Part shown: positions 21,677-53,149 of the stretch, one piece after another
How positions within the stretch are numbered: the first letter of the stretch is position 1
How the letters are laid out: every line of letters starts with the position of its first letter
NCBI GenBank assembly: GCA_029547225.1
Contig: JAKPPS010000040.1
Span: 42,796 to 106,795, forward strand
DNA from: a bacterium
GTDB lineage: Bacteria > Patescibacteriota > Dojkabacteria > SC72 > WJKH01
DNA: 64,000 nt
Direction of reading: 5' to 3'
Position numbers and translations under genes: made by a program
Notes under the pieces: model-generated
What the model saw: only the letters and a program-made list of their open reading frames with translations
Database searches by the model: none
What the model was told of the DNA's origin: nothing

Positions 21677-22852
21677 TTACTTAGTACTATTCTTACCAGA
21701 GATTGTATCTTTGAAATACAAGCTAATCTCTTGATACCATTTTGTTGAGCTATAAAGAGGAAATTTTACTGAAAGAAATGATTTATCGCTTACTTTCCTT
21801 TTTGCTTGAATTATTTTCCTCTCCTTAAGTGTATCAGGAAAATCAGCTATCGATTTTAAAAATGAACTAATAAATGCAAATATAACAAGTGGATACTTTC
21901 TAGTTATAGCTTGTTTTAAAGTCATAAGACATGTAGAGAGATAAAACATAGGAATCATATATACAAGCGTTCCGAATTGCATATTCTTTAACAATGGTCT
22001 TACCTTTCCTGAATAGTAAAGTTTAAAAGAGTTGTAGTATTTTCGATTATCTTTACGATTTGCTAATCCCGTATGAATTAGATAAGTCTTGTTATAAACC
22101 CAGTTCTCATAACCATATACATTTGCTCTTGTCGAGATATCATCATCATCTAAGTTGAATTTCTGCCTTTCATCAAAACCGCCAATATCTTGCCACACTT
22201 TTTTACTGCAAAAAATTTGCGAGAATGTTACAACACATCGATAACCACCCTCGATTGCCATGACATCTTTGATATTCAAGATTTTATTTCGCATTATTCC
22301 ATAAAATGAATAATAACTTCCGTACTGATTAGTTTCTCCAGACTCAAGTCTTTCTTTATCAACTAGTGGAATCAATAAATACGCAATTTTATCCTTGCCC
22401 CTATAGTACTCCAATAAATTATTAAAAATATTTTTATCAGTACAAATAATATCGTTATCAAAAAACATATAATAATCACCCGTGGCATTTAGGACTGCTC
22501 GATTTCTTGATTTTGGTATACCAAGATTTTCTGGGTTTTTATAATATACGATATCTACTTTATTCTTTTTGCTACTAGAACCTTTACTGGAACTTTTTTC
22601 ATGATCAGAAATAAATTTCTCTATCCACTCTCTACTACCATCTGTTGAGCCATCATCAACAAGAGAAATCTCATAATTTGGATAATCAAATTGAATAAAT
22701 TTCGGTAATGTTTCTTTGATATAATTCAAACCATTAAAATTGCATAAGATTATTGAAACACGAGGATAATTATTTGATTCACCCACTTCGCTTTTATTTG
22801 TGCTTTGTACATCTGTCATTTTCTTTGCATTGTTATTTTTCATGGATATCAT
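21677..22852 (-). CDS. Glycosyltransferase family 2
   Basis: 'VSIILCNFNGLNYIKETLPKF..DYPNYEISLVDDGSTDGS' and a DxD-like 'FDNDI'. C-terminal hydrophobic segments. Confidence 0.85.
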   Translation of the reverse strand: MISMKNNNAKKMTDVQSTNKSEVGESNNYPRVSIILCNFNGLNYIKETLPKFIQFDYPNYEISLVDDGSTDGSREWIEKFISDHEKSSSKGSSSKKNKVDIVYYKNPENLGIPKSRNRAVLNATGDYYMFFDNDIICTDKNIFNNLLEYYRGKDKIAYLLIPLVDKERLESGETNQYGSYYSFYGIMRNKILNIKDVMAIEGGYRCVVTFSQIFCSKKVWQDIGGFDERQKFNLDDDDISTRANVYGYENWVYNKTYLIHTGLANRKDNRKYYNSFKLYYSGKVRPLLKNMQFGTLVYMIPMFYLSTCLMTLKQAITRKYPLVIFAFISSFLKSIADFPDTLKERKIIQAKRKVSDKSFLSVKFPLYSSTKWYQEISLYFKDTISGKNSTK

Positions 22853-22925
22853 TATTTCTTATTAAATTCCATACTTTATTTTAATTTATGAAATAATTCC
22901 AAAATTCATATCAAGTAGATGGTCA

Positions 22926-23966
22926 CTATGATTTTCGTTTGACAATTTTTAGCTCAATCTCTTCATGAGGGCTATTATTTATATATCCATATAAATGACT
23001 TAAATCCATTTCATAACCTTGATTCCATAAATCTAAAAGATAATTTGTATCAATGTTACCACTTCTATTCACATTAAACTTATCTTGTTGAACCTTATTA
23101 ATTGGCATATTTACTAATTTCGACTTCTTATATGCAACCGCAATCTTATGGGAATAAAGTGATGAATATAGTGAGTTTAAATAATATTCATATACATTGG
23201 GAGATGTATAATCAGTATTATGCGAAAGCAATAAAATTTCTTGGAAATCAAATATTGAGCCGTCTACAGATATACTGTAAGCCCAGTCTGCAACTCCATC
23301 TTTCCATTGCCAGAATAATTTATCATCTATCTTGGTATATTTCTTAAATAGATTATTATCTAATAATTTATTCGTTTTAGATTCACAATCCATTGTATAT
23401 GAATATGTTGTATTTGCACCTAAACGTAAAGTCGGCGTAAACACATTGAGTGGTAAATTTTTGACATCAGCATAATCAAATGATTCCGTAAGAACAATAT
23501 CGTCAACAAAAAAAATTATATTTTCAGTGCTAATACTATCAAGTGCTTGCAGATAATCTTCTCTAAAGGATTCCTTGGATTTCTGCAAAATTGGGACTAT
23601 TTCTAAATTAGAAAATTTGGAGAAAACTTCGTGATATGCAGCCTGATGCTTATCGTTTGATGCCCGATAAAAAATATAAATCGGCATTTTTGTAACAAAT
23701 TTCTCATCGATACTTTTAATCAAACTGTACAATTGGAAAGCGCGATCAAATGAAAAAATAAATCCTACTATTTCGTTTTTGTTTTGCATATTATTGATAA
23801 CTTTATTAACTGGTAACTGATAAAGAGAAATTAGCATATCTTGCTGTAATATCTTCTCCTCTCTTTCAACTCTATGCTTATACGATTTGTATATTTTGGT
23901 CTTTGTGTAATCTATATGTAATGATTTTAGAATAGTACCAACAAAGCGGCGTAATTTTCTTAACAT
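22926..23966 (-). CDS. Putative GT-A-fold glycosyltransferase of unassigned family (hypothetical)
   Basis: Rossmann-like start 'IVGFIFSFDRAFQLYSLIKSI' and DxD-like 'IIFFVDDIVL', in glycan-cluster context. No confident family assignment. Confidence 0.3.
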   Translation of the reverse strand: MLRKLRRFVGTILKSLHIDYTKTKIYKSYKHRVEREEKILQQDMLISLYQLPVNKVINNMQNKNEIVGFIFSFDRAFQLYSLIKSIDEKFVTKMPIYIFYRASNDKHQAAYHEVFSKFSNLEIVPILQKSKESFREDYLQALDSISTENIIFFVDDIVLTESFDYADVKNLPLNVFTPTLRLGANTTYSYTMDCESKTNKLLDNNLFKKYTKIDDKLFWQWKDGVADWAYSISVDGSIFDFQEILLLSHNTDYTSPNVYEYYLNSLYSSLYSHKIAVAYKKSKLVNMPINKVQQDKFNVNRSGNIDTNYLLDLWNQGYEMDLSHLYGYINNSPHEEIELKIVKRKS

Positions 23967-23976
23967 GTAAACCTAT

Positions 23977-25227
23977 TTATAACTTATTCTTCGAATTTGA
24001 ATTGACCAGTGAAAGGTATAACTTTTCATAGTCGCTTGATATTTTATCCCAAGTAAAGAAATTTTTCCATTGTTCATAACCCTTGTTACTCAACTTTTGC
24101 AATAGTTTTCTGTCATTATATAATTGTTCTATCATCTTCGCACAAGCATTTATATCAATAGTAGCATAACCTTTTGCAGATTTAGTTGTCGGAATAATCA
24201 TTCCTCCACCAGTCCACGATGCAACCTCAGAAGCATTTCCAACATCAGAGCTTAAAAAGGCAGTATGAGAGGCATTGGCTTCATATAAAACTAACGGAGA
24301 TGCCTCAATATTCGAGGGAAAAAGAAAAAGATCCGCTTCTCTATTGGTATCAGCAAGAAGCTTATCATGTAAATAAGTAAGAATTATCCGCTTTTTTTTA
24401 TTAAAGATTTTAAAATAGAAATTCGCAAGTTTTGCTCTCAATTTGCACTTCCATTCACAATTATTCCGAAAAAAGTAAACAATTGATCTTAACGATTTTA
24501 GAGGATTTAATGATAAAGATAATTTTACAGTTGATTTACCAGTTAGTACAAAAACTGAATTTGAAATATTTGCTTTTACAAAAGATTGTATTGCTTCTCG
24601 ATGACCTTTTGCGTTTGTATGATTTCCTGCATGTAATATCAAAAAAGTATTCATATCCAATCCATTCTTTTTTTTAAATGAATACTCAACAGGAGTATCA
24701 TATAATTTTTCATCTGCCCCATTTGGAATAATAGTAATATTCTTTACTTTATTTGTTCGCGCGAAAGTAACGTCTTGATAAATATTTGATTGGAAAATAT
24801 TAGCATCATATTTGTTTAACCAGTCCGGCATATTAGAAAAATATTCTTTATACTCTTTCAACCTTAATCCAGAAAAGCCAGTAGGACAAGAGACTTTCTT
24901 AGATCCGATATTATCAAGTAAATCTAATACCAGGTCTGAAGCCCATTGCTGCATTGCAAAATTGCACATCACATCATATTCTTGCTTTAAAATAAACTCA
25001 CGATATCGTTCTACCTCGCCTGATATTCCATGTACTAAATTGCCTTTTATATCAAACTGTTTCACGAATACACCATTGATTTCTCCATCCTGACGACCTT
25101 CGACTTTGCATGTTGCAATAGTGACTTGATGGCCTTTTTGAACTAGTCGTTCAGATATTTGTTTCACGACCATATACATTCCCCCACCAGTTGGTGAGTA
25201 GTCTTGAACTGTATGAAGTATTCTCAT
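23977..25227 (-). CDS. Glycosyltransferase, GT-B fold (GT4-like)
   Basis: C-terminal 'FLFPSNIEASPLVLYEANASHTAFLSSDVGNASEV' matches the GT4 E-x7-E sugar-donor motif. 416 aa. Confidence 0.75.
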   Translation of the reverse strand: MRILHTVQDYSPTGGGMYMVVKQISERLVQKGHQVTIATCKVEGRQDGEINGVFVKQFDIKGNLVHGISGEVERYREFILKQEYDVMCNFAMQQWASDLVLDLLDNIGSKKVSCPTGFSGLRLKEYKEYFSNMPDWLNKYDANIFQSNIYQDVTFARTNKVKNITIIPNGADEKLYDTPVEYSFKKKNGLDMNTFLILHAGNHTNAKGHREAIQSFVKANISNSVFVLTGKSTVKLSLSLNPLKSLRSIVYFFRNNCEWKCKLRAKLANFYFKIFNKKKRIILTYLHDKLLADTNREADLFLFPSNIEASPLVLYEANASHTAFLSSDVGNASEVASWTGGGMIIPTTKSAKGYATIDINACAKMIEQLYNDRKLLQKLSNKGYEQWKNFFTWDKISSDYEKLYLSLVNSNSKNKL

Positions 25228-26162
25228 TTTGATCTTATTCTTCTATTTAAAATCTTATGTTTAAATTGAGAAAGCCTTGCCCGAGCAAGTTTTATTTTCA
25301 AGTCAGATCTGTATTTATTTATAAATTCTAACTGTACGTTTAGGAGATTTTTAAAAGTAATAATTCTCTGTGTTGAAAAAAGTTTTGAGATATCAACTGT
25401 ACTACGCATTGAATTCTGTGAATCATAAGTATAGTTAAGCATAGGATCATCGATCACAAACCAATCTGTAAACATTGATATTTTAACCCAAGTTGTAAAA
25501 TCCTCAACTCCTCTAGCTGATATTTCCTCTGGCATTCCCTTAACATCTTCAAATAATTTTCGTGAGACAATAACTGAACTTGTTATTATTGGATTCTCAT
25601 TTTTTAAAGACGTTAAGAAATGATAATCAAAAATGTATGATGTATACCCTACACTTTTAACGCCACCAGATACTGTCTCATCATGGACGAAAAAGAACTT
25701 GCTTTTATGATCAGCTTTGAGATTAATATATTTCCCATGGTTTTCACCATTTGAAGATATTGTGTTAGCATTGGTTGCGACAGCTTCTATTGATCGATTG
25801 TCATTGCTCGATTCATAAATAAATGCCATCTGTATTTCAAGCTTGTTAGGTAACCAATAATCATCACTATCTAAAAATGCAATCCACTTACCACTAGATT
25901 TTTCAAACGCTCGGTTACGAGGTACAGCAGGTGTTTTACTGTTATTCTTTAATTCTAGCAAGATAATATTCTCATGTTTATCAGCATACTTTTGGACTAT
26001 TTCTACTGTTTCATCAGTACTTCCATCATCTGCCACTATTATTTCATAATCTTTATATGTTTGATTAAGTACTGATTCGAGGCATTTACCGATTGTATTC
26101 TGGCGATTCCAAGTTGGGATTATCACTGAAACCATTGGTGTTTTCATACCTAAGGATACCAT
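25224..26162 (-). CDS. Glycosyltransferase family 2
   Basis: 'VSVIIPTWNRQNTIGKCLESVLNQTYKDYEIIVADDGSTDET' and 'FLDSDD'. Confidence 0.85.
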   Translation of the reverse strand: MVSLGMKTPMVSVIIPTWNRQNTIGKCLESVLNQTYKDYEIIVADDGSTDETVEIVQKYADKHENIILLELKNNSKTPAVPRNRAFEKSSGKWIAFLDSDDYWLPNKLEIQMAFIYESSNDNRSIEAVATNANTISSNGENHGKYINLKADHKSKFFFVHDETVSGGVKSVGYTSYIFDYHFLTSLKNENPIITSSVIVSRKLFEDVKGMPEEISARGVEDFTTWVKISMFTDWFVIDDPMLNYTYDSQNSMRSTVDISKLFSTQRIITFKNLLNVQLEFINKYRSDLKIKLARARLSQFKHKILNRRIRSK

Positions 26163-26313
26163 ATCTGATGCAAATACGGAAATCCAAAGGCTCGGTTAAA
26201 ATGTTTAAGATATTTCCTTTCGTACAAAAGGTAAAATAACTGTAGTAAGCTCGGGTAGTCATGGTTAGTGATACTTGGAACGCAATTAGGTTGGTGGCAT
26301 ACCATAAAAAAAA

Positions 26314-27681
26314 CTAACCCACCTCAACAATACCTCGTCGTTCTCCAGGGACTAAATCATTGCGTGTATCCCATTCAATTATTGGTCCCAACATACCCGG
26401 TCTTTTTGCCATCCAATATGGCGATTTACTCAATCCGCCCTGTATGCTTAGATTGATATGCGCTGGAGTTACTCCTGGCTCCGATAACCATTTCCGCCAA
26501 TGTAAAGAAGATATTAGTTCTATGCGATATTCGCCTTCATTAAAAAGATGCTTTGGAAGTTTACTAATAAAAGTTACATTACCTTGCTTAAACTTTGGCC
26601 ATTTTTCCTCCTCTGTATCTGTATGATAAGTCCAATATAATAATTGGTTGTCAGCAGTATATATCGCATAACCTACTGTCAAAGCAGGATCGATCGTCTT
26701 GATACTTCCTGAAATACTGATATAGAAATCGGTATCATTAGATACAGGCATGTTTAAAGCCTTTCCATTTTTGTCCGTAATTGCAATACGCGTTGGACTG
26801 AACCATTCATTGAGCAGGTTTCTGTTAATTTCACTATCATCATACATCCATTCTGATGGCAGATTTCCATTATCGAGAGTATTAAAATAGCTCTTGATCA
26901 CAGACCTAACATCAGTACTATCCATCTTGATCTGACCTTTATCTAGCAAAATACACCTGTTACATAACTGCTCAATAGCGCCCATGTTATGACTTACAAA
27001 TATGACTGTGCGTCCATTGCTGCTTACATCTTTCATCTTGCCAAGACATTTTTTTTGAAATGCTGCATCACCTACCGCCAAAACCTCATCTACTATAAGT
27101 ATTTCTGGTTCAAGATGAGCAGCTACAGCAAAAGCTAATCTTACATACATACCCGAAGAATATCTTTTGACCGGAGTATCAAGGAATTTCTCTACCTCAG
27201 CAAATGATACTATCTCATCAAACTTAGATTTGATTTCTTTTCGAGACATACCAAGTATCGCACCGTTTAGATAGATATTTTCACGACCTGTTAATTCTGG
27301 ATGAAAACCAGTACCTACTTCTAATAGACTCGCTACTCGCCCGGAGATAGAAATACGGCCACTTGTTGGTTCTGTTATCCTACTAAGCATTTTTAATATT
27401 GTTGATTTACCTGCACCATTACGACCAATAATGCCTAATCTTTCGCCATCATTTACATTAAAAGTCACATCCTTAACTGCCCAAAATTCGTTTTCTTTTT
27501 CCTGGTTAGATTTTCTTGATTTGGTTAATGATTTAACTTTTGTATTCAGCAATTCTCTAAAAGAAGATGATGCCTTAGCACCTAAAATATATTTTTTTGA
27601 AAGCTTTTCTACTTTTATTACGGTTTGATCTCCCAAAATATTATTATCAATTTTGTTATTGTGATTAGATGACATCGGCAA
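26314..27681 (-). CDS. wzt: ABC-2 polysaccharide exporter ATP-binding protein with C-terminal carbohydrate-binding extension (Wzt/TagH-like)
   Basis: Walker A 'GIIGRNGAGKST', signature 'YSSGMYVRLAF', Walker B 'ILIVDEVLAVGD'. About 200 extra C-terminal aa, as in Wzt O-antigen-binding domains. Confidence 0.9.
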   Translation of the reverse strand: MPMSSNHNNKIDNNILGDQTVIKVEKLSKKYILGAKASSSFRELLNTKVKSLTKSRKSNQEKENEFWAVKDVTFNVNDGERLGIIGRNGAGKSTILKMLSRITEPTSGRISISGRVASLLEVGTGFHPELTGRENIYLNGAILGMSRKEIKSKFDEIVSFAEVEKFLDTPVKRYSSGMYVRLAFAVAAHLEPEILIVDEVLAVGDAAFQKKCLGKMKDVSSNGRTVIFVSHNMGAIEQLCNRCILLDKGQIKMDSTDVRSVIKSYFNTLDNGNLPSEWMYDDSEINRNLLNEWFSPTRIAITDKNGKALNMPVSNDTDFYISISGSIKTIDPALTVGYAIYTADNQLLYWTYHTDTEEEKWPKFKQGNVTFISKLPKHLFNEGEYRIELISSLHWRKWLSEPGVTPAHINLSIQGGLSKSPYWMAKRPGMLGPIIEWDTRNDLVPGERRGIVEVG

Positions 27682-28507
27682 ACTCCTTTTCTGTTTTCCT
27701 AAAATAAGACAAACCTATTGTAAATATCACCAAGGACATAAGTATAGCAAGTGCAATTCCTGGTATGAATAATTCCTGGTCTGTACGCAACAATGACCAT
27801 CTAAAACCATCTATCACCCCTGCCATCGGATTTAGATAATATAACAACCTGAAATTCTCAGGGATATTTGTGCTGGCAAATCCTACTGGTGAAATATATA
27901 ACCCAAATTGAACAATAAATGGCACAACAAATCTAAAATCTCGATATTTGACATTGAGTGCAGATATAAAATAGCTTGCTCCCAATGTTGTGACTAACGC
28001 GATAATAAAGAACAAAGGCATAAATACAATGTTCATTGTAGGGAAATAATTGTAGTATATCATCAACACAAAGAGTATTAAGAATGCAATTGCCGTGTCA
28101 AGAATATTGACAACTATAGTTGAAGTTGGCACGATTATCCTTGGAAAATAGATTTTTGAAAGCATGTTTGAGTTTGCAATAAGTGAATTACTACCTTCTG
28201 AAAACGAATTTGCAAAAAAATTCCAAGGCAGCAAGGCAGAATATACGAGAATCGGATAAGGTATGTTTTCTGAAGGCAATCCAGCTAATTTGCCAAAAAT
28301 AACTGTAAGTACAATCATTGTAATGACTGGACGCAAAATGCTCCATGCTACTCCAATAATTGTCTGTTTATATCTGACTAAAATATCTCTCCATGCAAGA
28401 AAAATAAATAATTCACGATATGTCCACAGGTCTCTCCAGTAATATTTACCGCTTTTATTTGCCTCTATGACAGTCATCTTGACATTTGTATTGTCTTTCT
28501 TCTCCAT
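27665..28507 (-). CDS. wzm: ABC-2 polysaccharide exporter permease (Wzm/TagG-like)
   Basis: 'YKQTIIGVAWSILRPVITMIVLTVIFGKLAG' ABC-2 signature. Six TM helices. Overlaps wzt by 17 nt. Confidence 0.85.
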   Translation of the reverse strand: MEKKDNTNVKMTVIEANKSGKYYWRDLWTYRELFIFLAWRDILVRYKQTIIGVAWSILRPVITMIVLTVIFGKLAGLPSENIPYPILVYSALLPWNFFANSFSEGSNSLIANSNMLSKIYFPRIIVPTSTIVVNILDTAIAFLILFVLMIYYNYFPTMNIVFMPLFFIIALVTTLGASYFISALNVKYRDFRFVVPFIVQFGLYISPVGFASTNIPENFRLLYYLNPMAGVIDGFRWSLLRTDQELFIPGIALAILMSLVIFTIGLSYFRKTEKEFADVI

Positions 28508-28574
28508 TAATCTAAATCTCGACTTACAAAGTTATAATAAGGAATTATACAGCTAAAGTTGAAAGTTGAAAATG

Positions 28575-29603
28575 TCAAAAACGATATTTATCCAATAACT
28601 GATATTTTATTTCTCTAACTGCATTTTGAGCTTTTAAAGGTAAAAACGAAGCTAAAACTAATTTTCGAACAGCTTCAATCTCTTTTTTGCATTCTTTGAT
28701 ATCAGTAACCTCGTTACTGGCACAATTTGAATATTTTTTAATAAATGCTTTAGCTTTACCCTTAAACTCTTTAGTTTTATTTGTAAGGAAAAGAAATTTT
28801 ATATTATTAAAATCTGTATCCCGCTCAGTATCCTTGTTTGCAATAACTGATTTTTTGAGCTTCTCAACATCAAAGTTTTCATAATTATCTACACCTGTAA
28901 TCTGCTTAGTTTCATATATTTTTTTTATCTCTTCTTTGATTGCTTTTTGTAATGCAAATTTAGAAGCACTAACAGAAGTCGGAATAAATCTATATTTAAG
29001 AAGATATTCTGGCAGAGTATCTATAACCTTGCCCTGACTAATCAATTGCAAATACATATCATAATCCTCACAATACTGTGCCTTAGCACGATACTTAACT
29101 AAACCATCATTTCTAAACATAATCGAAGGGTGTATTGGAGCAATACCTTGTACTATCCGCGTATGATAATTGCGTCTACTCATATTGACTCTGATTTTAC
29201 GAAGTTGAAATCCATTTTCGTCTATTGCATAAGCCCAAGTACCTAACAAATATATATCACGATTTGATTCTAGATATCGAAATTGATTTAATAATCTGTC
29301 GGGAAGAGAAATATCATCTGCATCCATGCGTGCAATATATTGCCCTTTTGCTTTTTCAAGGCCTGTATTAAGTGCATTAACCAAGCCTTTATTAGGAATA
29401 ATATCTATAGGTACAACTCGATGATCAATTTTAGCAAATCGTTTAATAATTTCTGGAGATTTATCAGTTGATCCATCATTTATTAATAAAAGTTCAAAGT
29501 CAATTAATGTTTGATCTAATATTGAACGGACTGCCTCCTCGAGATATTCTTGCGCATTGTAAACAGGTAAAATAACACTTACCTTTGGTGAGTTACTGTT
29601 CAT
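28575..29603 (-). CDS. Glycosyltransferase family 2
   Basis: 'VSVILPVYNAQEYLEEAVRSILDQTLIDFELLLINDGSTDKS' and 'RMDADD'. Confidence 0.85.
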   Translation of the reverse strand: MNSNSPKVSVILPVYNAQEYLEEAVRSILDQTLIDFELLLINDGSTDKSPEIIKRFAKIDHRVVPIDIIPNKGLVNALNTGLEKAKGQYIARMDADDISLPDRLLNQFRYLESNRDIYLLGTWAYAIDENGFQLRKIRVNMSRRNYHTRIVQGIAPIHPSIMFRNDGLVKYRAKAQYCEDYDMYLQLISQGKVIDTLPEYLLKYRFIPTSVSASKFALQKAIKEEIKKIYETKQITGVDNYENFDVEKLKKSVIANKDTERDTDFNNIKFLFLTNKTKEFKGKAKAFIKKYSNCASNEVTDIKECKKEIEAVRKLVLASFLPLKAQNAVREIKYQLLDKYRF

Positions 29604-29623
29604 AGTTTGAATACTAATCGAAA

Positions 29624-31045: not shown

Positions 31046-31135
31046 CTCTTTATTTTATCACAATTTTCAATATCCTTTGATTCAAATAAACTTCAAAGCC
31101 AAAACGTATTCAGAAATTCCACATAATTAGAAACA

Positions 31136-34885: not shown

Positions 34886-34924
34886 AATGGTATAATGATC
34901 AATTAATAACATAAGGAACATTTT

Positions 34925-42032: not shown

Positions 42033-42094
42033 TTAGAGAAAAAATAAGTTTTTTAGGTGGTGAAAACTATATTACTTTGGTTATTCTCTCAAAT

Positions 42095-43219: not shown

Positions 43220-43273
43220 ATCGATATCGATAAAAAATATGAAAGCGAGAATCTTATGATAGATTAATCATTA

Positions 43274-43807
43274 TTATTCTCGACTATTCCTCTTTGCAAG
43301 TGCCAATTTAGCCTGTTGAATAATAATTCCTATTAACGAAATTGTAAGGAATGTGTAGAAAGCTGAAGCAAAAGCTTCTGCAACAAACTCAATCTTAAAA
43401 GCCAAAAGTATTGGAACTGGAATCAAAGCGATTAATGAAATAATTGACAGAGTAAACGGTTTCAAGTCATTTGCAATCCAAATATATCCAATAAAATAAT
43501 AAAAAGCAGTTACGAAATCATACCTGTTTGGAGATAAGACAATTATTATTACAAGAAGGATTATCGCAATAATTATATTCAATGGGTTTAGTAATATAGA
43601 ATAAAATATTGTTTCTAACTCTGACTTTAAAAAAGAAAAATCAATAATTTTCTTACTGTCATATGTATTCGCTTCATTAATGCTTACTTTTTTCAAGTAT
43701 TTCTCAACAATTTGAGGTTTAAGATATATCCCTCTAATGGCATTATTTAAGCTTTCGTAATATCTAATGGTTCTATTCTGATTTTTTTTCTTCGTACTTT
43801 TTGACAT
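43274..43807 (-). CDS. Small membrane protein (hypothetical), last gene of the GtrB-like/GT-C-like module
   Basis: 177 aa. Basic N-terminus, 3-4 C-terminal TMs. Start overlaps the upstream 716-aa gene by 35 nt. Confidence 0.3.
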   Translation of the reverse strand: MSKSTKKKNQNRTIRYYESLNNAIRGIYLKPQIVEKYLKKVSINEANTYDSKKIIDFSFLKSELETIFYSILLNPLNIIIAIILLVIIIVLSPNRYDFVTAFYYFIGYIWIANDLKPFTLSIISLIALIPVPILLAFKIEFVAEAFASAFYTFLTISLIGIIIQQAKLALAKRNSRE

Positions 43808-45923: not shown

Positions 45924-45941
45924 AATTTCTAAAATAAATAA

Positions 45942-46886
45942 TTATATAATCCTCTTGATAATATACAAGGGACGGTTTGTAACCTCATTATAAATAGTCG
46001 CAATATAAAGTGATATTAAACCAAGACAAGATAGTATCACACCTACAAAAAACATCAAGATAATAGCTAAAATTGCCGTACCAGTAATGCTTGCAATATA
46101 CCGATTTTCAAATATATATCGTCCAACAAATATAACTACTAGCAAAATGCTGGATGTAATCATTATAAATATTCCAAGATAACCTGCAATTTTCAGAGGA
46201 AAAAGACTCAAACCAACAAAACTAGAAATTGCTAAACGAACCTTTTTAATAAAATTGTATGATGGTCTCCCCCCGACTCTTTCTCGTGCTTCAAAATGAA
46301 TATAGTCTCTTTTAAATCCCATCCAATCTATCAAACCTCTTGTAATACGATTCCGTTCTGTGAATTTGTTAAGCTGATCAATTACCGTTCTATCAATTAG
46401 CCTAAAATCTGTCGATCCTGGCACACTTTTTGTATCCGAAATTCGATTTAATATACTGTAAAATAACTTTGAACCTAGTTTCGAAACAAAATTACCACTA
46501 TTGTTTTTCCTTACACCGACTACTACATCATTTCCTTCTTCCCATTTTTTGATGAATTGAAGTATTAGCTCTTGTGGAAACTGGAGATCAGCATCAAGTA
46601 TTATTGCCGCATCTCCATGACAATTCATATATCCAGCAGAAGTTGCGATTTCTTTACCAAAATTACGTGAAAATTCAATCAAGTGGTATCTCTTATTTTT
46701 TTTAACAAGCTGCTCAACTTTTCGAACCGTATCATCAGTACTTCCATCGCTGATTATTATTACCTCGAAATTATAATTGTCTTTCTGACTTTCTATAACT
46801 TTATTTACTTCGACATAATATTTATCAATATTTTCTGCTTCGTTGAAAGCTGGAGTTATTATCGAAATTAGTTTTTTCATAAGCAT
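45942..46886 (-). CDS. Polyprenyl-phosphate sugar synthase-type GT2 (GtrB/ArnC/DPM1-like) with C-terminal TM helices
   Basis: 'ISIITPAFNEAENIDKYYVEVNKV..FEVIIISDGSTDDT', 'ILDADLQFP', and two C-terminal TMs ('LGIFIMITSSILLVVIFV', 'ILAIILMFFVGVILSCLGLISLY') as in GtrB. Confidence 0.8.
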   Translation of the reverse strand: MLMKKLISIITPAFNEAENIDKYYVEVNKVIESQKDNYNFEVIIISDGSTDDTVRKVEQLVKKNKRYHLIEFSRNFGKEIATSAGYMNCHGDAAIILDADLQFPQELILQFIKKWEEGNDVVVGVRKNNSGNFVSKLGSKLFYSILNRISDTKSVPGSTDFRLIDRTVIDQLNKFTERNRITRGLIDWMGFKRDYIHFEARERVGGRPSYNFIKKVRLAISSFVGLSLFPLKIAGYLGIFIMITSSILLVVIFVGRYIFENRYIASITGTAILAIILMFFVGVILSCLGLISLYIATIYNEVTNRPLYIIKRII

Positions 46887-46999
46887 TTACGGAATGAAAT
46901 TCTATTATTGTCAATTATACCATTTTTTCTATTCTATATCATTGATAATAATTATCTATAAATATTTAAAGTTATAATACTATTCAGAATATTAGTAAA

Positions 47000-48154
47000 T
47001 TAAATCTCTTTAATCAATTTCTCAAAAATCTCAGAATAATCAAAACCTCTGCTATATTTTATTGCATTCTCACGATATTGTTGATTTACTTTCGGACTCA
47101 TCATTTTAATAATATGATCTGCCATATCTTTCGAATCAAGTGTGATTATTTCACCTGCGTTAACATCTGCAATCTCTCTTGCATTCCAAGGAATATTGGT
47201 AAGCAATACTGGAACTCCACAAGCTAGATATGTTTTTACTTTTCCTGGATCTGCATAATATGTCCATGTATCAAGTTCTTTTGAATATGGCGCTATAGAG
47301 ACTGCTGATTTTGCAATTTCCTTTTCGACATCTTCAAGTTTCTCTATCCTACCTAAAAAATCGCAGTATTTTGAGACGCCCATTTTTGTTGCTTTTTCTT
47401 TAAGAGTATCAAGATATGCTCCGCCACCAATTATTTTGAAGTTAAAACCTGGAATCTTCTTTATTACTTCAGGTATTGAATCTAGAACAAATTGAACACC
47501 CTGCTTTTCGATGATGTGTCCCATAAAAACTAATGTATTTTTCTGACAATCTTTATAATCATATACTTTAATTCTTGAAAGCCACATTCCATAAGGAACA
47601 ACTCTATGAAGCTTATATTCGGTTGTTTTTATGCCTGCATATTTCTCTCGAGCTTCTGCCATTCGTGGGGAAATATCCCACATCTGATCTGCGTTTCTAT
47701 ATCCGAATTTATTTACATTTGAATATATTAAATTTTTTATTTTACTTCCGAAACGATTTTCAGGTACATAATCCATAGCCCAAAAAATAGTTTTATCAAC
47801 CTTACGAAATACTTTTAATAAGTAGCCGTATACGAGACATAAACCGTCCATAGCAATATAGTATTTGAAGTGATTTTTAAGTTTTAAAAGAGAACTTAAA
47901 GTAAAAATAAATTCCTTAACATAAATCAAAACTTCTGGAAGTTTTTTATAATCCTTTGTTTCCCTTTTTTCTATCTTACCATCTGCACCAAATTTTGATA
48001 TCCAACTTTTTCGGTTATCAGCATCAGAAAAACTATGGCAAACTTGAACAACATTTTGGCCAGTACTGACAAGATATTTTATCAACTCATCATCAGGTTG
48101 TGGATTAAACTTATGAGCGACAATAACATAATCCGATTTGAATTTCTTATCCAT
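47000..48154 (-). CDS. Glycosyltransferase, GT-B fold (GT4-like)
   Basis: C-terminal 'PGKVKTYLACGVPVLLTNIPWNAREI' resembles the GT4 E..(A)CG.PV motif. 384 aa. Confidence 0.55.
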   Translation of the reverse strand: MDKKFKSDYVIVAHKFNPQPDDELIKYLVSTGQNVVQVCHSFSDADNRKSWISKFGADGKIEKRETKDYKKLPEVLIYVKEFIFTLSSLLKLKNHFKYYIAMDGLCLVYGYLLKVFRKVDKTIFWAMDYVPENRFGSKIKNLIYSNVNKFGYRNADQMWDISPRMAEAREKYAGIKTTEYKLHRVVPYGMWLSRIKVYDYKDCQKNTLVFMGHIIEKQGVQFVLDSIPEVIKKIPGFNFKIIGGGAYLDTLKEKATKMGVSKYCDFLGRIEKLEDVEKEIAKSAVSIAPYSKELDTWTYYADPGKVKTYLACGVPVLLTNIPWNAREIADVNAGEIITLDSKDMADHIIKMMSPKVNQQYRENAIKYSRGFDYSEIFEKLIKEI

Positions 48155-48171
48155 TTTGAATTACATATAAT

Positions 48172-49238
48172 TTATATTTTCTTAAAATCTTTATATAATT
48201 CAATTAACTGATTTGCACGATTTATATATGTATGAGATTTTCTTACTCGTTCCTGTCCTGCTTTCATTATTGCAATTCGTTTTTCAGGATTTTCAAGGTA
48301 ATATTCCATTTTTTGATTCCAATCATCTTCATTTTCTGCCAGCACTATTTCTTTACCTACTTCAAATTGGTCTTTTATACATCTCACATTATCAACAATT
48401 TCGAAACCTCCATATAGAGAATTTTATATGTTCTTTCATTGCAACAACCACCCGAAATTCTCTGATACTCTTCATGAACATTGACACTAATTTTCGAAGT
48501 GAAATACATATTTGCCTCATCTTGAAGTTTGTATTTTGGCTTTTTGAAATTTTTGAGTATTGGAATATTGAAATATTGTCCACCTCTTTGCACCCATCCC
48601 GTTAATCTATCAAAAAAGGTCCAATCTTGTCCTAAGAGCATTACCTTATATTTATTGCGATACCTTAATACATTTCGATTAAAGAAATCTCTTTTCTCTG
48701 GAAGATTTGTTCCTAAAAACAGAATATCAGAATTAAATCTTTCATCTCTTTGAGGAACGATACTGTCATCAGCTGCTAGTAAAACCGTATGATATTTATA
48801 ACCAGTACCTTCTTCAAAACCTTGCATTCGAGGATCTTCATGATCAGCAGGATGATAAAAAATATCACCCATTAAACCATCCTTAATTTTTTTTATCAAT
48901 TCTTTGTCATCACTTAACCCTTTATCCTCATTAATTCTAAAATCAGAAAATGGATAGCTCCAATAAGGCGCAAAGATCATTGATACCATCCCGTTTTTAC
49001 GTGCTTTATTGTAAACATCCAAATCTAAATATTTAAGATTGAATTTCGATAATGAAGTCATCATGATATCTGGCTTATATTCATCAATTACTTTTTCCAG
49101 ATTATCGTCTGCCGTCAATGGCCTAAATTGATGCCCTAACTTTAGAAAGCCATTTTTGTAGCCATTATATATTGTTCTTCCAGCATATAAAGTGTTTAAG
49201 GAAGGTATCTGATACAATACTTTTAATTTCTTATCCAT
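48172..49238 (-). pseudogene. CgeB-family (Glyco_trans_1_2) glycosyltransferase split by a single-nucleotide frameshift (two ORFs 49238-48384 and 48387-48172)
   Basis: The upstream ORF ends '...NVHEEYQRISGGCCNERTYKIL|YMEVSKLLIM*'. The downstream ORF reads '(LYGGFEIVDN)VRCIKDQFEVGKEIVLAENEDDW..MEYYLENPEKRIAIMKAGQERVRKSHTYINR'. Joined with a +1 shift, these give 'NERTYKILLYGGFEIVDN..FEVGKEIV', which matches the CgeB consensus 'NMRTFEILACGGLLLTD...LFEPGKEIV'. The indel lies in the TATATA/TTTT run at about 48411-48426. Confidence 0.6.
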
Positions 49239-50106
49239 TTTTTATTACTAATAATTTACGCAAAAACTTAAATATTATTATTACCGCCCTAGTCGGGAAA
49301 ACTTGCATGAACCAAGTTGCAAAGAATGCAAGACCATCAGAAAATGTAAATTTATATGCCTTATCATTTTTGTATTTCTTCCGAGCCTTTAAAGTATTAC
49401 GTAAAATAGCTTTCATCTTTTTGTGAGTAGCATTATTCTCCTGTTCACGATAGTAAAGAAGTATTTTAGGAACATTTGCAAATTTATACTTTCTACCGAT
49501 ACGATACCAAAGTTCAATATCTTCAGCCACTGGAAAATCCTCACTATAATTACCACAATCGATAATCGCTTCTTTTCTAATCATACATGAAGGTTGAGCG
49601 AGGGGCGAACTTTTAAATATTCTTTTTCTGATTTCAGCATCGTCTGTTTCATATTTCCTCACATCAAGATTTCCACTTGAATTGAAGCTTTGAAGAAATC
49701 CCCCACATACTCCAATCTTATCATCTGATTTCATGAGCGCAAGCTGATCCGCTATCCGTGTATTTACTGAAATATCATCTGCATCATGTATCACATAGAA
49801 TTGGCCATTAGCTAATTCGAATAGTCTATTACGAGATCTGACAATCTTTTGATTCGTTTCGTTTCGAAAAACTTTTATCCGAGAGTCTTTATTTTCATAC
49901 TTGGTAATAATATCTAGTGTATTATCTGTTGAGCAATCATCTAAAATTAGTAATTCAAAATTTGTATACGTCTGTTCTGAAACACTTTTGATTGCTTCTT
50001 CAATATACTCAGAAGCATTATATGCTGGCATCAAAACGGAGACTAAAGGTTTTGATGAAGTTTGTGACGATTTGTTTGAATTATTTCCCTGATATTTTTG
50101 TGTCAT
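49231..50106 (-). CDS. Glycosyltransferase family 2
   Basis: 'VSVLMPAYNASEYIEEAIKSVSEQTYTNFELLILDDCSTDNT', 'IHDADD'. Confidence 0.85.
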   Translation of the reverse strand: MTQKYQGNNSNKSSQTSSKPLVSVLMPAYNASEYIEEAIKSVSEQTYTNFELLILDDCSTDNTLDIITKYENKDSRIKVFRNETNQKIVRSRNRLFELANGQFYVIHDADDISVNTRIADQLALMKSDDKIGVCGGFLQSFNSSGNLDVRKYETDDAEIRKRIFKSSPLAQPSCMIRKEAIIDCGNYSEDFPVAEDIELWYRIGRKYKFANVPKILLYYREQENNATHKKMKAILRNTLKARKKYKNDKAYKFTFSDGLAFFATWFMQVFPTRAVIIIFKFLRKLLVIKNG

Positions 50107-50110
50107 ATTT

Positions 50111-50992
50111 TCAGAAAGATTTTTTCTTAAAAAACATCGTTATATTATTTGCTCCGATTTTTTTATTATTATTCTTCTCATCAATATGCTCAATCTTCTC
50201 CTTATCAATATTTTTGAAAATCATATTTAACAAGACTAAGAAAACCTTAGCCGTGTGCCCTTTATAAATTGTAGTTATTGGATCGAAATTATTAAATAAC
50301 TCTGACAATGTTTCAAAGTCATACCTTCTTAAATGTCCAATGCGTTTATCATGAATGATGTTCACTAGCCATAATAGAGGACTTATATACTTCAATTTAT
50401 GAGGGACAGTAACCATAATTTGACCATCATCTGTCACGACTCTAGTGAGCTCCTTTGCTGCCTTTACATCTTCTGGAAGATGCTCTAATACTGCATTTGA
50501 GACAAAATAATCTGCTGCTCTATCCTTTATTGGTAAACTCTGTGCATTACAGCAAAGAGTCATTATTTTATCATTAAGTCCTAATACTTTTGCATTATGA
50601 TTAAGTCTGATCAGGTAATCTAATGTAAGATCTGTAGCTAACACATTGTATCCAAGTTTTGCAAGTTCAATCGCTATGTATCCTGTACCAGTACCGCAAT
50701 CAATTATAAGAGCAGATTTCTTCTTCTTAATATTCGTATTCGCGACAAAACTATCAACATATGATTTTTGCCAAGGTTCGATTTTATAATCTGCGCCCAA
50801 ATCTTTAGATTCATTACTAAAATACTCGATTTGTTGTATAAGATGTTTCGGAATTTTATCGTAATCTATTAATACAGGTATTCCTTCTATTGTTTTATAC
50901 TTAGCTTCACATTTTGTACAATGATATTTATCAGCATTTTTTTTAAGCGCTCCTGAACATTTTGGACAGACAACAATATCATCTATATTCAT
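50111..50992 (-). CDS. Class I SAM-dependent methyltransferase with N-terminal Cys4 zinc-ribbon (Trm112-like) domain
   Basis: 'CPKCSGALKKNADKYHCTKCEAKY' zinc ribbon. Motif I 'LIIDCGTGTGYIAIELAKLGYNVLATDL'. Motif II-like 'ADYFVSNAVLEHL'. Confidence 0.75.
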   Translation of the reverse strand: MNIDDIVVCPKCSGALKKNADKYHCTKCEAKYKTIEGIPVLIDYDKIPKHLIQQIEYFSNESKDLGADYKIEPWQKSYVDSFVANTNIKKKKSALIIDCGTGTGYIAIELAKLGYNVLATDLTLDYLIRLNHNAKVLGLNDKIMTLCCNAQSLPIKDRAADYFVSNAVLEHLPEDVKAAKELTRVVTDDGQIMVTVPHKLKYISPLLWLVNIIHDKRIGHLRRYDFETLSELFNNFDPITTIYKGHTAKVFLVLLNMIFKNIDKEKIEHIDEKNNNKKIGANNITMFFKKKSF

Positions 50993-51009
50993 ATCACTAT
51001 TTTATCAAA

Positions 51010-52053
51010 TTATTTGACCTTTTCACTATTAACTTCTTCAATATCGCTTTCAACCATTATTTTTACGAGATCTTCAAATTTCGTTTTTGCCTCCCATCCA
51101 AGTATTTTTTTAGCTTTACTACAGTCACCGATCAACAAATCCACTTCAGAAGGTCTAAAATATCTTTCGTCAATCTCAATGATAGTCTTTCCAGTTTTTT
51201 TGTCGATACCCTTCTCCTGCATTCCCTTACCATTCCATTCGATATCTATATCCAATATTTTTGCTGCAGCTTCAACGCACTCTCTTACTGAATGAGTTTC
51301 GCCTGTAGCTAAAACAAAATCATCTGGTTTATCCTGCTGCAACATCATCCACATACCTTCCACATAATCTTTTGCATAACCCCAGTCTCTTTTTGATTCA
51401 AGATTTCCAAGATAAAGCTTTTCTTCCAAGCCCATTTTTATCCTTGTAAGCCCTCTTGTAATCTTTTTAGTTACAAAAGTCCCGCCTCTTCTTGGAGATT
51501 CATGATTAAATAAGATACCATTTGTAGCGAAAATATCATAACTTTCTCGATAATTTACAGTAATCCAATAAGCATATACTTTTGCACAACCATATGGGCT
51601 TCGTGGATAAAATGGAGTTGTTTCTTTTTGAGGTATTTCTTGAACTTTACCAAACATCTCAGAAGAAGATGCCTGATAATATTTTGTTTTGATTTTTGTA
51701 TCTTTTATAGCATCAAGTATACGTAATGCACCGAGTGCTACAACATCAGAAGTGTATTCAGGCATATCAAAACTTACCTTTACATGGCTTTGAGCACCAA
51801 GATTATATATTTCATCAGGATTAACTTTCTCAATAATCCTAGAAATATTGCTACTATCTGACAAATCTCCATAGTGAAGGAACAGCTTCACACCGTTAAC
51901 ATGTGGATCTTGATAAAGATGATCTATACGACTTGTATTAAATGTGGAAGCTCGTCGAAGTAATCCGTGAACTTCATAACCTTTACTGAGAAGCAATTCT
52001 GTAAGATAACTACCATCTTGTCCTGTAATACCTGTGATTAATGCTTTTTTCAT
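51010..52053 (-). CDS. gmd: GDP-mannose 4,6-dehydratase
   Basis: '[36 protein letters not shown]', '[10 protein letters not shown]', '[12 protein letters not shown]', a typical Gmd short-chain dehydrogenase. 347 aa. Confidence 0.95.
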
Positions 52054-52207
52054 ATTTATACTTTTTAATTTATAGCGATAATTTATATCTTATTTCATAA
52101 ATAATATCAATAAGAATTCATTCTTATGATTCAAGGATTACTTCCCAAAATCTAATAATTTCTTTGTCTCCAATTGCGCCCGCTAAATTGTATTCAGAAA
52201 AAATATA

Positions 52208-53149
52208 CTATTTCTTAATATCAACATAATTATTTACAAACCAATCGTATGTCATTTTAATACCCTCTTTTAACTCGATGTTATGTTTCCATCCAAGTCC
52301 ATGTAATCTACTCACATCAAGTAATTTTCGAGGAGTACCATCAGGTTTACTCTTATCCCAGACTATTTCCCCTGTAAATCCGACAATATCTTTGATCGTT
52401 TCAGCCAACTCTTTAATCGTTACATCAATACCTGTACCGATATTTACTATTTCAGATTCATCATAGTTATTCATAAGATAGACTACTGCATCAGCAAGAT
52501 CATCTACATAAAGAAATTCTCGCATTGGTGATCCTGTACCCCACAATGTAACGCTCTCTGCATTAGTTTCTTTTGCTTCATGAAATTTCCTTATCATAGC
52601 AGGCAAGACATGACTTGTTTCCAAATTGAAGTTATCGTTCTGACCATAAAGATTTGTCGGCATTACAGAAATATACTTTGTACCGTATTGCTCGTTAAAG
52701 CTCTGACACATTTTAATACCTGCAATTTTTGCAATCGCATAAGCATCATTAGTTTCTTCTAGAGGACCAGTCATAAGATATTCCTCTTTGATCGGCTGTG
52801 TGGCTAATTTAGGATATATGCACGAACTACCTAGAAACAATAGTTTCTTTACATTATTTTTATAGGAAGCATAAATAACATTATTTTGTATCTGCAGGTT
52901 GATATAAATAAAGTCAGCTTTATGTGTCTTGTTAGCTAAAATACCTCCAACATGAGCTGCGGCCAAAAAGACATATTCTGGCTTCTCCTGTACGAAAAAG
53001 TCCATAGTTGCTTTCTGATCTGTCAAATCAAGCTCCGTAGAGTCACGAAATACTAGATTAGTATAGCCATGACTTTGAAGTTTACGAGTAATTGCTGATC
53101 CAACAAGACCTTTGTGACCTGCAACAAAAATTTTTGAGTTTTTATCCAT
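52208..53149 (-). CDS. fcl: GDP-L-fucose synthase (GDP-4-keto-6-deoxymannose 3,5-epimerase/4-reductase)
   Basis: '[19 protein letters not shown]', '[10 protein letters not shown]', '[15 protein letters not shown]', '[11 protein letters not shown]'. 313 aa. Confidence 0.9.

Follow-up and report, generated by a model that had tools for sequence, protein, structure and literature searches.

We analyzed a 64,000-nt stretch (the window; positions below are counted along its forward strand) of contig JAKPPS010000040.1 from assembly GCA_029547225.1, in which positions 21677-53149 hold a dense block of genes for glycan synthesis and export. This block is probably a native chromosomal cell-envelope glycan locus of a presumably monoderm bacterium of the candidate phyla radiation (CPR), built of three modules: two pathways that would each depend on an ATP-binding cassette (ABC) exporter (modules A and B) and a transmembrane glycosylation route with a lipid-linked donor (module C). 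The evidence consists of the gene families present, the folds of two key proteins (a putative three-enzyme protein of 1031 aa in module B and a 716-aa membrane glycosyltransferase in module C), the conservation of catalytic residues, synteny in other CPR genomes and the independence of the assemblies that carry the locus. The components are recognizable relatives of known systems, and the locus is mostly ordinary; what is novel are variants, not principles, namely a GT2-PRP-gPRT enzyme in a CPR genome, a family of GT-C glycosyltransferases related to AftD, and the conserved cassette in which the latter lies. Current models are not overturned by it.

Families were assigned with Pfam and NCBIfam, PDB sequences were searched with phmmer, and structures were compared using Foldseek. 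The open reading frame (ORF) listing gives 25 genes in 21677-53149 with a largest internal gap of 213 bp, and 22 of the 25 have a family-level link to glycan synthesis or export; three (encoding proteins of 346, 424, and 177 aa) could be assigned to no family. The genes fall into three co-oriented modules: A (33397-21677, minus strand), B (33611-43219, plus strand), and C (53149-43274, minus strand). Promoter and terminator scans gave counts no better than those for shuffled sequence, so that operon boundaries rest solely on gene orientation and spacing. No RNA genes were found in the window by Rfam and tRNA scans.

An earlier note, made from the sequence alone, had described a dense glycan island of ~31 kb here, which agrees with the gene spacing and family assignments above. 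Most of its inventory was recovered as well: two Wzm/Wzt exporters, a Wzx-like flippase, WecB, Gmd, and Fcl (each above its curated NCBIfam cutoff, Fcl marginally), a zinc-ribbon methyltransferase, a polyprenyl-phosphate glycosyltransferase, and a GT-C-like membrane protein of 716 aa, all in a reduced genome. Its counts were too generous. Instead of at least nine glycosyltransferases of family GT2, we found seven proteins with a GT2 domain. Four of its six GT-B enzymes are intact (416, 421, 431, and 384 aa), a fifth, CgeB-like, is broken by a frameshift, and the sixth could only correspond to a possible GT-B-like domain, with weak signals, at the C-terminus of a 753-aa protein. The note had also taken the largest GT2 protein as a plain GT2, missing the modular structure of the locus and the ribofuranose chemistry dependent on phosphoribosyl pyrophosphate (PRPP) that is predicted for this protein.

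Module B, in which this protein lies, comprises the following genes (TM, transmembrane helices).

33611..34885, plus strand: polytopic membrane protein, 424 aa, ~12 TM; MOP-superfamily signals, all weak
34925..35689, plus strand: Wzm2 ABC-2 permease, 254 aa, ~6 TM (ABC2_membrane, E 2e-14; NCBIfam galactan Wzm, KpsM)
35689..36426, plus strand: Wzt2 ABC ATPase, 245 aa, no C-terminal extension (ABC_tran, E 3e-24; NCBIfam TagH, Wzt)
36401..37666, plus strand: GT-B glycosyltransferase, 421 aa (Glyco_trans_1_4, E 2e-7)
37645..38940, plus strand: GT-B glycosyltransferase, 431 aa (Glyco_trans_1_4 and Glycos_transf_1)
38937..42032, plus strand: putative trifunctional enzyme, 1031 aa, with GT2 (1-240), HAD phosphatase (~330-560), and PRPP-dependent phosphoribosyltransferase (~560-1000) domains (phmmer, AlphaFold2, Foldseek)
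42029..43219, plus strand: WecB, non-hydrolysing UDP-GlcNAc 2-epimerase giving UDP-ManNAc (Epimerase_2, E 5e-120; TIGR00236, 491 bits, cutoff 210)

In sequence and in its modeled fold, the 1031-aa protein resembles a GT2 enzyme joined to a CrpP/PRP-like phosphatase and a CriT/gPRT-like ribofuranosyltransferase. Its residues 330-678 align with residues 371-713 of Bcs3 (phmmer, E 3e-15). Bcs3 is the capsule polymerase of Haemophilus influenzae type b, in which residues 374-591 form the HAD phosphatase CrpP, followed by CriT, a PRTase-like enzyme that moves ribofuranose-5-phosphate from PRPP (PMC10299916). An AlphaFold2 model built from 61 homologs had a predicted local distance difference test score (pLDDT) of 87.7 and a predicted template modeling score (pTM) of 0.88. 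Foldseek matched it to Bcs3 (8a0m, E 3e-26, ~1000 columns) and to the polysaccharide ribofuranosyltransferase of Thermobacillus composti (7shg, E 1e-20, 659 columns), with ordinary GT2 enzymes next. The HAD nucleophile D346, within the motif FDIFDTL, corresponds to D386 of Bcs3, and D346, D349, and T350 are invariant in the 61 homologs. The same holds for R647/D648 and S675/R676, which align with Bcs3 R679/D680 and S707/R708; the counterpart of Bcs3 E818 is possibly D783.

The protein shares with Bcs3 CriT/CrpP (8a0c/8a0m) and with the gPRT-PRP enzyme (7shg) the order of a HAD phosphatase followed by a PRTase-like transferase with helical bundles, the catalytic Asp and PRPP-binding residues, and the context of an ABC-exporter operon. 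Unlike Bcs3, it has an N-terminal GT2 domain in place of the TagF-like CroT, and no SH3b domain; with GT2 fused instead of CroT, the expected repeat is sugar-ribofuranose, not ribosyl-ribitol phosphate. Bcs3 and the gPRT/PRP enzymes act in ABC-dependent O antigen and capsule pathways (PMC10299916, PMC11127046, PMC11231755). By analogy with them, use of PRPP and formation of beta-ribofuranose by the 1031-aa enzyme are predicted, and the polymer of module B probably contains ribofuranose. Given the likeness to ribofuranosyltransferases and the position within an ABC-exporter block, the simplest reading is that of an ABC-exported polymer with beta-ribofuranose in its repeat. More than 2000 proteins, at ~40% identity, share the ~1020-1050-aa architecture. 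Among the homolog clusters that were looked up, one lies in a metagenome-assembled genome (MAG) labelled Clostridiaceae, and the named members are annotated just as 'glycosyltransferase'; we did not find the GT2-PRP-gPRT architecture described as such in the cited literature. One 99%-identical copy (P0008) bears the MAG label 'Bacilli bacterium', against Dojkabacteria for other identical copies, which is probably a binning error.

Module B would then be a second ABC-dependent pathway, independent of the one in module A. Its two GT-B enzymes and WecB (through UDP-ManNAc) would probably provide a primer or adaptor. The 1031-aa enzyme would alternate a sugar from a nucleotide donor, added by the GT2 domain, with beta-ribofuranose-5-phosphate from PRPP, added by the gPRT domain; the HAD domain would remove the phosphate from the ribose, and the chain would leave through Wzm2/Wzt2.

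Module C holds the second key protein, together with the genes listed below.

43274..43807, minus strand: small membrane protein, 177 aa, 3-4 TM
43773..45923, minus strand: putative GT-C-fold glycosyltransferase, 716 aa (family profile against AftD; AlphaFold2 and Foldseek)
45942..46886, minus strand: GtrB/PgfS/ArnC-like polyprenyl-phosphate glycosyltransferase, 314 aa, GT2 domain and two C-terminal TM (GT2, E 3e-29)
47000..48154, minus strand: GT-B glycosyltransferase, 384 aa (Glyco_trans_1_4, E 4e-18)
48172..49238, minus strand: CgeB-like GT-B gene, frameshifted into ORFs of 284 and 71 aa (break at ctctatatgg, ~48405-48415)
49231..50106, minus strand: GT2 glycosyltransferase, 291 aa (GT2, E 5e-34)
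50111..50992, minus strand: SAM-dependent methyltransferase, 293 aa (Methyltransf_11, E 8e-16), with an N-terminal CxxC...CxxC zinc ribbon (CPKC...CTKC)
51010..52053, minus strand: Gmd, GDP-mannose 4,6-dehydratase (GDP_Man_Dehyd, E 2e-153; TIGR01472, 584.5 bits, cutoff 415)
52208..53149, minus strand: Fcl, GDP-L-fucose synthase (NF047922, 500.3 bits against a cutoff of 500, hence marginal)

Searched as a single sequence, the 716-aa protein gave no match in Pfam, NCBIfam or the PDB. It has ~10 TM, a beta-rich extracytoplasmic domain of ~270 aa (~400-670), and a C-terminal TM. An exhaustive search collected a family of 108 representative clusters, and the profile of this family matches mycobacterial AftD (6w98/6wbx) with E 2.4e-9 over ~490 positions. 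In the Foldseek search with the AlphaFold2 model, AftD was again the best match (E 1.4e-6), and the top six were AftD three times, STT3, AftA, and PglB; ArnT and AftB came farther down, among non-GT-C matches with E > 0.2. All six of these named enzymes are of the GT-C type. Residue D7 is invariant in the family, within the motif G-x-I-x-Y-x-D. By profile and by model, we assign the protein to the GT-C glycosyltransferases, in a family related to AftD and enriched in CPR. It shares with AftD (DUF3367; 6w98), its best match by both approaches, a GT-C transmembrane core and an extracytoplasmic domain. In contrast to AftD, it is half the size (AftD has ~1400 aa), is ~10% identical, and lacks the acyl-carrier domain and the multiple carbohydrate-binding modules; its neighbor is GtrB-like and would take an NDP-sugar rather than PRPP-derived decaprenyl-phospho-arabinose. 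That neighbor aligns over its full length with the NCBIfam models PgfS (225 bits) and ArnC (135 bits), under the equivalog cutoffs.

For the locus scan we used species-representative genomes and the tighter family alignment A3, the broad alignment A2 being too diverse. The scan returned 11 loci of the GT-C family, nearly all in MAGs whose labels place them in CPR lineages, among them Saccharibacteria, Nomurabacteria, Paceibacterota, Moranbacteria, and Roizmanbacteria. In as many as nine of the loci, homologs of window genes lie 5' of the GT-C gene in the same orientation: the GtrB-like GT2 (39-53% identity), the 291-aa GT2 (35-46% identity, 9 loci), a methyltransferase, the 384-aa GT-B (L006, L010, L011, L013, L014, and L016), an intact CgeB-like GT-B, and sugar-nucleotide enzymes. 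Locus L011 has a Gmd and an Fcl that are 78% and 74% identical to the window copies, and a methyltransferase that is 47% identical. The sugar-nucleotide genes differ by locus, L010 having, for example, UDP-glucose dehydrogenase along with a Polysacc_synt_2 dehydratase, and L011 a short-chain dehydrogenase; additional methyltransferases occur. A priming phosphoglycosyltransferase (PGT) was found in none of the cassettes examined, and no Wzm/Wzt homologs were detected around the module C homologs within flanks of ~10 kb on each side.

The same comparison bears on the flippase. In L010, L013, and L016, a ~430-aa protein with 12 TM adjoins the GtrB-like gene, the one in L010 being Polysacc_synt by Pfam, and a hidden Markov model (HMM) of these three flippases matches the Wzx-like protein of the window (E 9e-10). 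By this homology, the Wzx-like protein is probably the flippase of the module C pathway. Since a Wzx-like flippase lies within the GtrB/GT-C cassette in other CPR genomes, the Wzx and GtrB/GT-C routes are most likely one, a single multi-component transmembrane glycosylation route. A Wzx-type flippase has a precedent in streptococcal GacI/J/K/L, and a single wall-polysaccharide cluster of Gram-positive bacteria combines, in GacD/E and GacI/J/K/L, an ABC exporter, a Wzx-type flippase, a GtrB-like glycosyltransferase, a small TM protein, and a GT-C (PMC8035078). The 177-aa protein has no Pfam match, GtrA included, and NCBIfam and PDB phmmer searches with it were equally fruitless. An HMM of the small 3-4-TM proteins encoded 3' of GT-C genes in seven CPR loci matches it with E 4e-10, and it is a candidate GtrA-like flippase or accessory subunit.

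In the route proposed for module C, Gmd and Fcl would make GDP-L-fucose, and the methyltransferase and three or four soluble glycosyltransferases would tailor the glycan. The GtrB-like enzyme would put a sugar on polyprenyl phosphate, and a flippase (the Wzx-like protein, the 177-aa protein or both) would bring the lipid-linked donor outward. The AftD-like GT-C would pass the sugar to a surface acceptor, most likely an exported polymer and possibly a protein. This arrangement recalls known transmembrane glycosylation systems (GtrA/B/V; CsbB-GtcA-YfhO; GacI/J/K/L; PPPRS-MATE-GT136) in its membrane-anchored GT2 making a polyprenyl-phosphate sugar, its flippase (Wzx-type, small 4-TM or both), and its polytopic GT-C with an N-terminal Asp and a beta-rich domain. 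It differs from them in that its GT-C family has no Pfam model, is linked to AftD at the profile level only, and is found mostly in CPR MAGs. Module C also adds three or four soluble glycosyltransferases, a methyltransferase, and a variable set of sugar-nucleotide enzymes, and its Dojkabacteria GT-C lacks the usual first TM.

The strongest alternative, which we regard as possible though somewhat unlikely, is that module C is a protein glycosylation system resembling an oligosaccharyltransferase (OST) pathway: an oligosaccharide of fucose or methyl-fucose would be assembled on a lipid, flipped by the MOP protein, and transferred en bloc by the GT-C to pilins, an S-layer or a collagen-like protein. 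The three or four soluble glycosyltransferases, sugar-nucleotide enzymes, and methyltransferases exceed the needs of a single-sugar Gtr system, and the best named match of the GtrB-like enzyme is PgfS, part of the protein-glycosylation machinery of Streptococcus mutans. STT3 and PglB are among the structural matches of the GT-C, and candidate acceptors lie nearby, as pilin-like genes at 11935-13524 and a collagen-like protein from ~62.5 kb. A cassette with no PGT would also be expected if a DPM1/AglJ-like enzyme primes polyprenyl monophosphate. Against this, a PGT may be encoded elsewhere in the genome, the OST structural matches are weak (E 0.06-0.2), and the closest relative, AftD, is a polysaccharide-elongating enzyme with a monosaccharide donor. 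For module C we keep to the lipid-linked route with an exported polymer as the favored acceptor.

Module A is composed as follows.

21677..22852, minus strand: GT2 glycosyltransferase, 391 aa (Pfam Glycos_transf_2, E 4e-22)
22926..23966, minus strand: soluble protein of no assigned family, 346 aa (GT-A-like motif FFVDDIV, by eye only)
23977..25227, minus strand: GT-B glycosyltransferase, 416 aa (Pfam Glyco_transf_4 and Glycos_transf_1)
25224..26162, minus strand: GT2 glycosyltransferase, 312 aa (Pfam Glycos_transf_2, E 7e-37)
26314..27681, minus strand: Wzt1/TagH-like ABC ATPase, 455 aa, with a C-terminal extension of ~185 aa (ABC_tran, E 3e-23)
27665..28507, minus strand: Wzm1 ABC-2 permease, 280 aa, ~6 TM by hydropathy (ABC2_membrane, E 3e-17)
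28575..29603, minus strand: GT2 glycosyltransferase, 342 aa (Pfam, E 2e-35)
29624..31045, minus strand: MOP-family (Wzx-like) flippase, 473 aa, ~12 TM (Polysacc_synt and Polysacc_synt_3, E ~1e-16)
31136..33397, minus strand: 753-aa protein with an N-terminal GT2 domain (E 1e-34), a K/E-rich helical stretch (~330-400), and an unassigned C-terminal domain

The proposed pathway of module A would make an ABC-exported glycopolymer: the GT2-domain proteins (four, the 753-aa one among them) and one GT-B would build a polyprenol-linked chain in the cytoplasm, Wzm1/Wzt1 would export it, and the extension of Wzt1 may recognize a cap at the chain end. For both Wzt1 and Wzt2, the best NCBIfam matches are TagH and galactan Wzt at ~200 bits, under the equivalog cutoffs. 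The ATP-binding subunits of the two exporters are 46% identical and the membrane subunits 27%; judging from the sequences, the exporters are old paralogs. The 346-aa protein gave no match in Pfam, NCBIfam, the PDB or a tblastn search of plasmids. Residues 8-240 of the 753-aa protein match GalT1, TarS, TarP, and RmlT in the PDB, and residues 659-730 give faint GT-B signals; for the C-terminus, Pfam (E up to 5), NCBIfam, and PDB phmmer searches returned nothing usable and plasmid tblastn returned nothing. The carbohydrate-binding domain of Wzt is generally held to read the chain-end cap. In ABC-dependent systems of Klebsiella, chain length is set by a terminator on a coiled-coil ruler protein (PMC11231755), and by analogy the 753-aa protein is a candidate polymerase or terminator with such a ruler. 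Together with the extended Wzt1, it may control chain length and cap recognition in a similar manner.

Modules A and B resemble ABC-dependent pathways (Wzm/Wzt O-antigen, TagGH wall teichoic acid, streptococcal RgpDE/GacDE) in having two permease/ATPase pairs among soluble GT2 and GT-B enzymes, with one ATPase carrying a C-terminal extension and the other not, and in the large multidomain glycosyltransferase with a helical segment, comparable to coiled-coil 'ruler' proteins (PMC11231755). They differ in that the CPR bacterium presumably has no outer membrane, hence no outer-membrane polysaccharide export (OPX) or polysaccharide co-polymerase (PCP) partners, and in that the locus has no priming enzyme, ligase or identified terminator and a Wzt1 carbohydrate-binding domain that is sub-threshold.

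The locus is not confined to the contig analyzed. An identical 716-aa protein with the same neighbors was found on 8 contigs (ENA, JGI, Logan, and NCBI assemblies). For a Candidatus Dojkabacteria population, the gene order is found in no fewer than four independent assemblies, including a 111-kb NCBI MAG contig, and island proteins carry the label Candidatus Dojkabacteria in public records. Contig L018 (16 kb) is collinear with 21139-34296 at 95.7% identity with zero indels. An assembly chimera, which the earlier note had named as one way to be wrong, is ruled out by the same gene order in independent assemblies and the collinearity of L018. Horizontal acquisition, which the note had wanted checked by composition, was rejected on that ground: the window is low in GC (~31%), GC at third codon positions (GC3) is 0.244 inside the island against 0.239 outside (p = 0.54), and island GC and codon usage (codon-usage distance) are indistinguishable from the flanks.

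The note had also proposed a comparison of synteny with related genomes. Contig L005 (17 kb), assembled from a different metagenome, keeps the gene order of the window over 33714-48614, with an identity that forms a mosaic. It is ~100% over 33714-35750, 89-93% over 36000-37750, mostly 95-100% over 37750-42000 (one 250-bp bin at 78%), 87-96% over WecB (42000-43000), and 98-100% to ~43500. Past ~43500, in the 177-aa, GT-C, GtrB-like, and GT-B genes, it falls abruptly to 65-84%. Divergence at synonymous sites (dS) relative to L005 is 1.6-3.1 in the GT-B, GtrB-like, and GT-C genes of module C, with ratios of nonsynonymous to synonymous divergence (dN/dS) of 0.04-0.08, against a dS of 0-0.37 in module B genes; the breakpoint lies inside the 177-aa gene (dS 0.40, dN/dS 0.65). 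This pattern indicates that module C was replaced by a divergent, functional allele through recombination between relatives. Modules evolve as separate units. The apparent exchange of module C alleles between otherwise near-identical strains suggests surface variation under phage or host pressure. The central genes of L005 at first seemed variable; they are the same genes split by frame breaks, hence the differing sizes. In the stretches 9112-11064 and 6761-9807 of L005, the counterpart of the 1031-aa gene appears as a 231-aa GT2 plus a 698-aa PRP-gPRT, and that of the 431-aa GT-B as ORFs of 195 and 244 aa. At 99% identity to the window genes, these fragments reflect either assembly frame errors or inactivation in that strain.

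A number of observations weigh against the three-module reading as proposed. A priming PGT was sought in the island and the flanking ORFs scanned (ORFs 59980-60435, 61673-62269, and the collagen-like one left out), with no Glycos_transf_4 or Bac_transf match, and neither an LCP-type ligase nor GDP-mannose supply genes are in the window. The Wzx-like gene sits in module A, 13 kb from module C, and its pairing with the latter rests on synteny in other lineages. The extension of Wzt1, which the earlier note took for glycan-binding, is indeed present, yet it scores 28.0 bits against Pfam Wzt_C, below the gathering score of 30.4 (E 2.4e-6), and has no match in a PDB sequence search. The 424-aa protein of module B could be a Wzy-like polymerase, and L005, the contig with the mosaic identity, might be a product of metagenomic co-assembly. 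One GT-B gene of module C is broken: the CgeB-like frameshift is identical in all four independent assemblies. Its 71-aa piece matches Glyco_trans_1_2, a frame change recovers the family motif 'NERTYKILYGGFEIVDN', and intact homologs of ~350 aa occur in L007, L011, and L016; the split gene may be a pseudogene that has become fixed, or else it is expressed as two pieces.

Two further points of this kind concern the GT-C protein. The confidence of its AlphaFold2 model is moderate (pLDDT 68, pTM 0.69), and the protein starts at MYFGYGD without the TM that precedes the Asp in most homologs, which puts the topology of the catalytic loop in question. P0005 (74% identical by BLASTP, 79% in the A3 alignment) and P0129 likewise have no preceding TM. 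In both divergent alleles (window and L005 2728), the GtrB-like ORF ends in TAA and the ATG of the GT-C follows 18 nt on in the same frame. A GtrB-like/GT-C fusion by read-through was considered and dropped; the stop is a plain TAA, and nothing speaks in its favor.

That the three modules serve one wall polysaccharide, comparable to the rhamnose-rich ones of streptococci, lactococci, and enterococci, with the chains of A and B joined outside the cell and side chains added by C, strikes us as unlikely. The inventory does mirror the GAC, EPA, and Rha-CWPS clusters (PMC8035078), the modules are contiguous and syntenic in relatives, and the beta-rich extracytoplasmic domain of the GT-C could bind a polymer acceptor. 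The exporters, however, are deeply diverged, and the C-terminal extension of one suggests different cargo rules; the module C cassettes of other CPR genomes showed no Wzm/Wzt homolog within the ~10-kb flanks, the modules have independent recombination histories, and no rhamnose pathway is present.

Still more doubtful is a set of fully independent routes, each with its own product: two ABC polymers, a true Wzx/Wzy polymer with the 424-aa protein as Wzy, and a Gtr-type side-chain glucosylation. A bona fide Polysacc_synt flippase is present here at a large distance from the GtrB/GT-C pair, and the 424-aa polytopic protein has no assigned family, as could be expected of a Wzy, a group known for its divergence. 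Yet the island has no family match for Wzy_C/O-antigen ligase or O-antigen polymerase (Pfam, NCBIfam), for a chain-length regulator (Wzz/PCP, GNVR) or for a priming PGT, and a homologous flippase is embedded in the GtrB/GT-C cassette of other CPR genomes. The 424-aa protein itself gives three weak signals, all to the MOP superfamily and none to Wzy: Pfam MurJ (E 0.003, residues 51-258), the HMM of the CPR-cassette flippases (E 0.0065), and the MOP profile A4 (hhalign, probability 44%, E 2.4e-4, residues 211-368). These signals are collinear. NCBIfam and PDB phmmer searches gave nothing usable, BLASTP against the Wzx-like protein of the island was negative, and a homolog search returned a single, 99%-identical copy; a second, divergent MOP-superfamily flippase is a possible reading of these signals. 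Of the several routes and products seen by the earlier note, more than one product is likely, with two divergent exporters and a lipid-linked transferase, and an independent Wzx route is doubtful.

For module C and the Wzx-like flippase, a bolder proposal, to which we give a low probability, is a CPR-wide, undescribed pathway for lipid-linked oligosaccharides: GtrB/DPM1-type priming of polyprenyl monophosphate would be followed by extension with 6-deoxy and methylated sugars, export by the MOP flippase, and en bloc transfer by the GT-C to surface protein or wall, with the whole swapped between strains by recombination. If true, it would give bacteria an equivalent of the archaeal glycosylation based on dolichol phosphate, and the swapping would be a device for surface variation. 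At the other end, an assembly artefact or a recent mobile island bounded by the RhuM-family gene 430 bp beyond the right edge is largely refuted and has hardly any credit left: the nearest non-self relatives of the 1031-aa protein (~40% identity) include proteins of a MAG labelled Clostridiaceae and a 99% copy is labelled Bacilli, against which stand the gene order shared by the independent assemblies and the 111-kb contig, GC, GC3, and codon usage indistinguishable from the flanks, and no tRNA, integrase or repeat boundary found at the island.

A large part of bacterial diversity belongs to the CPR, whose members live attached to other cells; to our knowledge, their surface chemistry is almost uncharacterized. 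In the literature we found no specific description of glycan loci in Dojkabacteria or CPR. From the three-module reading we infer which genes act together, with which donors and acceptors, how the polymers are built, and whatever part they may have in host contact. The central role in episymbiotic interaction that the earlier note proposed is a plausible conjecture. For the Dojkabacteria surface it predicts a polymer with PRPP-derived ribofuranose, a glycan with fucose or methyl-fucose, and ManNAc. The GT-C family and its cassette would be a candidate for a common surface-glycosylation system of CPR (Saccharibacteria, Paceibacterota, Moranbacteria, Nomurabacteria, and others).

The flanks of the island carry RecG, RelA/SpoT, SerRS, and an AddA-like helicase-nuclease. 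Beside the latter lie four tandem T4SS_pilin (PF18895) genes (11935-13524, minus strand), candidate surface filaments or acceptors, which with the RuBisCO large-subunit gene (56486-57931) are counted as CPR hallmarks. On the 5' side of the island, a 1160-aa protein (16965-20447, plus strand) with CBM96, bacterial Ig-like, and C-terminal M23 peptidase domains may be a secreted cell-wall hydrolase. On the other side, the RhuM-family gene (53581-54600, minus strand, E 7e-105) and the RuBisCO gene enclose a gene for a 415-aa protein of no assigned family with ~8 TM (55036-56283, minus strand), with no integrase or tRNA nearby.

A surface protein encoded from ~62500 to 64000 (plus strand) and beyond the window end has an N-terminal TM anchor, collagen-like G-x-x repeats, and repeated 'DGSDGLSAYDIAVAEGYSGTVAEWLASLIGPQGP' modules, and it accounts for a local rise in GC to 41%. 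Collagen-like proteins such as BclA are glycosylated, and this one is a possible glycosylation acceptor. Among the housekeeping genes, a 252-aa protein (4540-5298, minus strand) is AEP-like, that is, similar to an archaeo-eukaryotic primase (1D-like).

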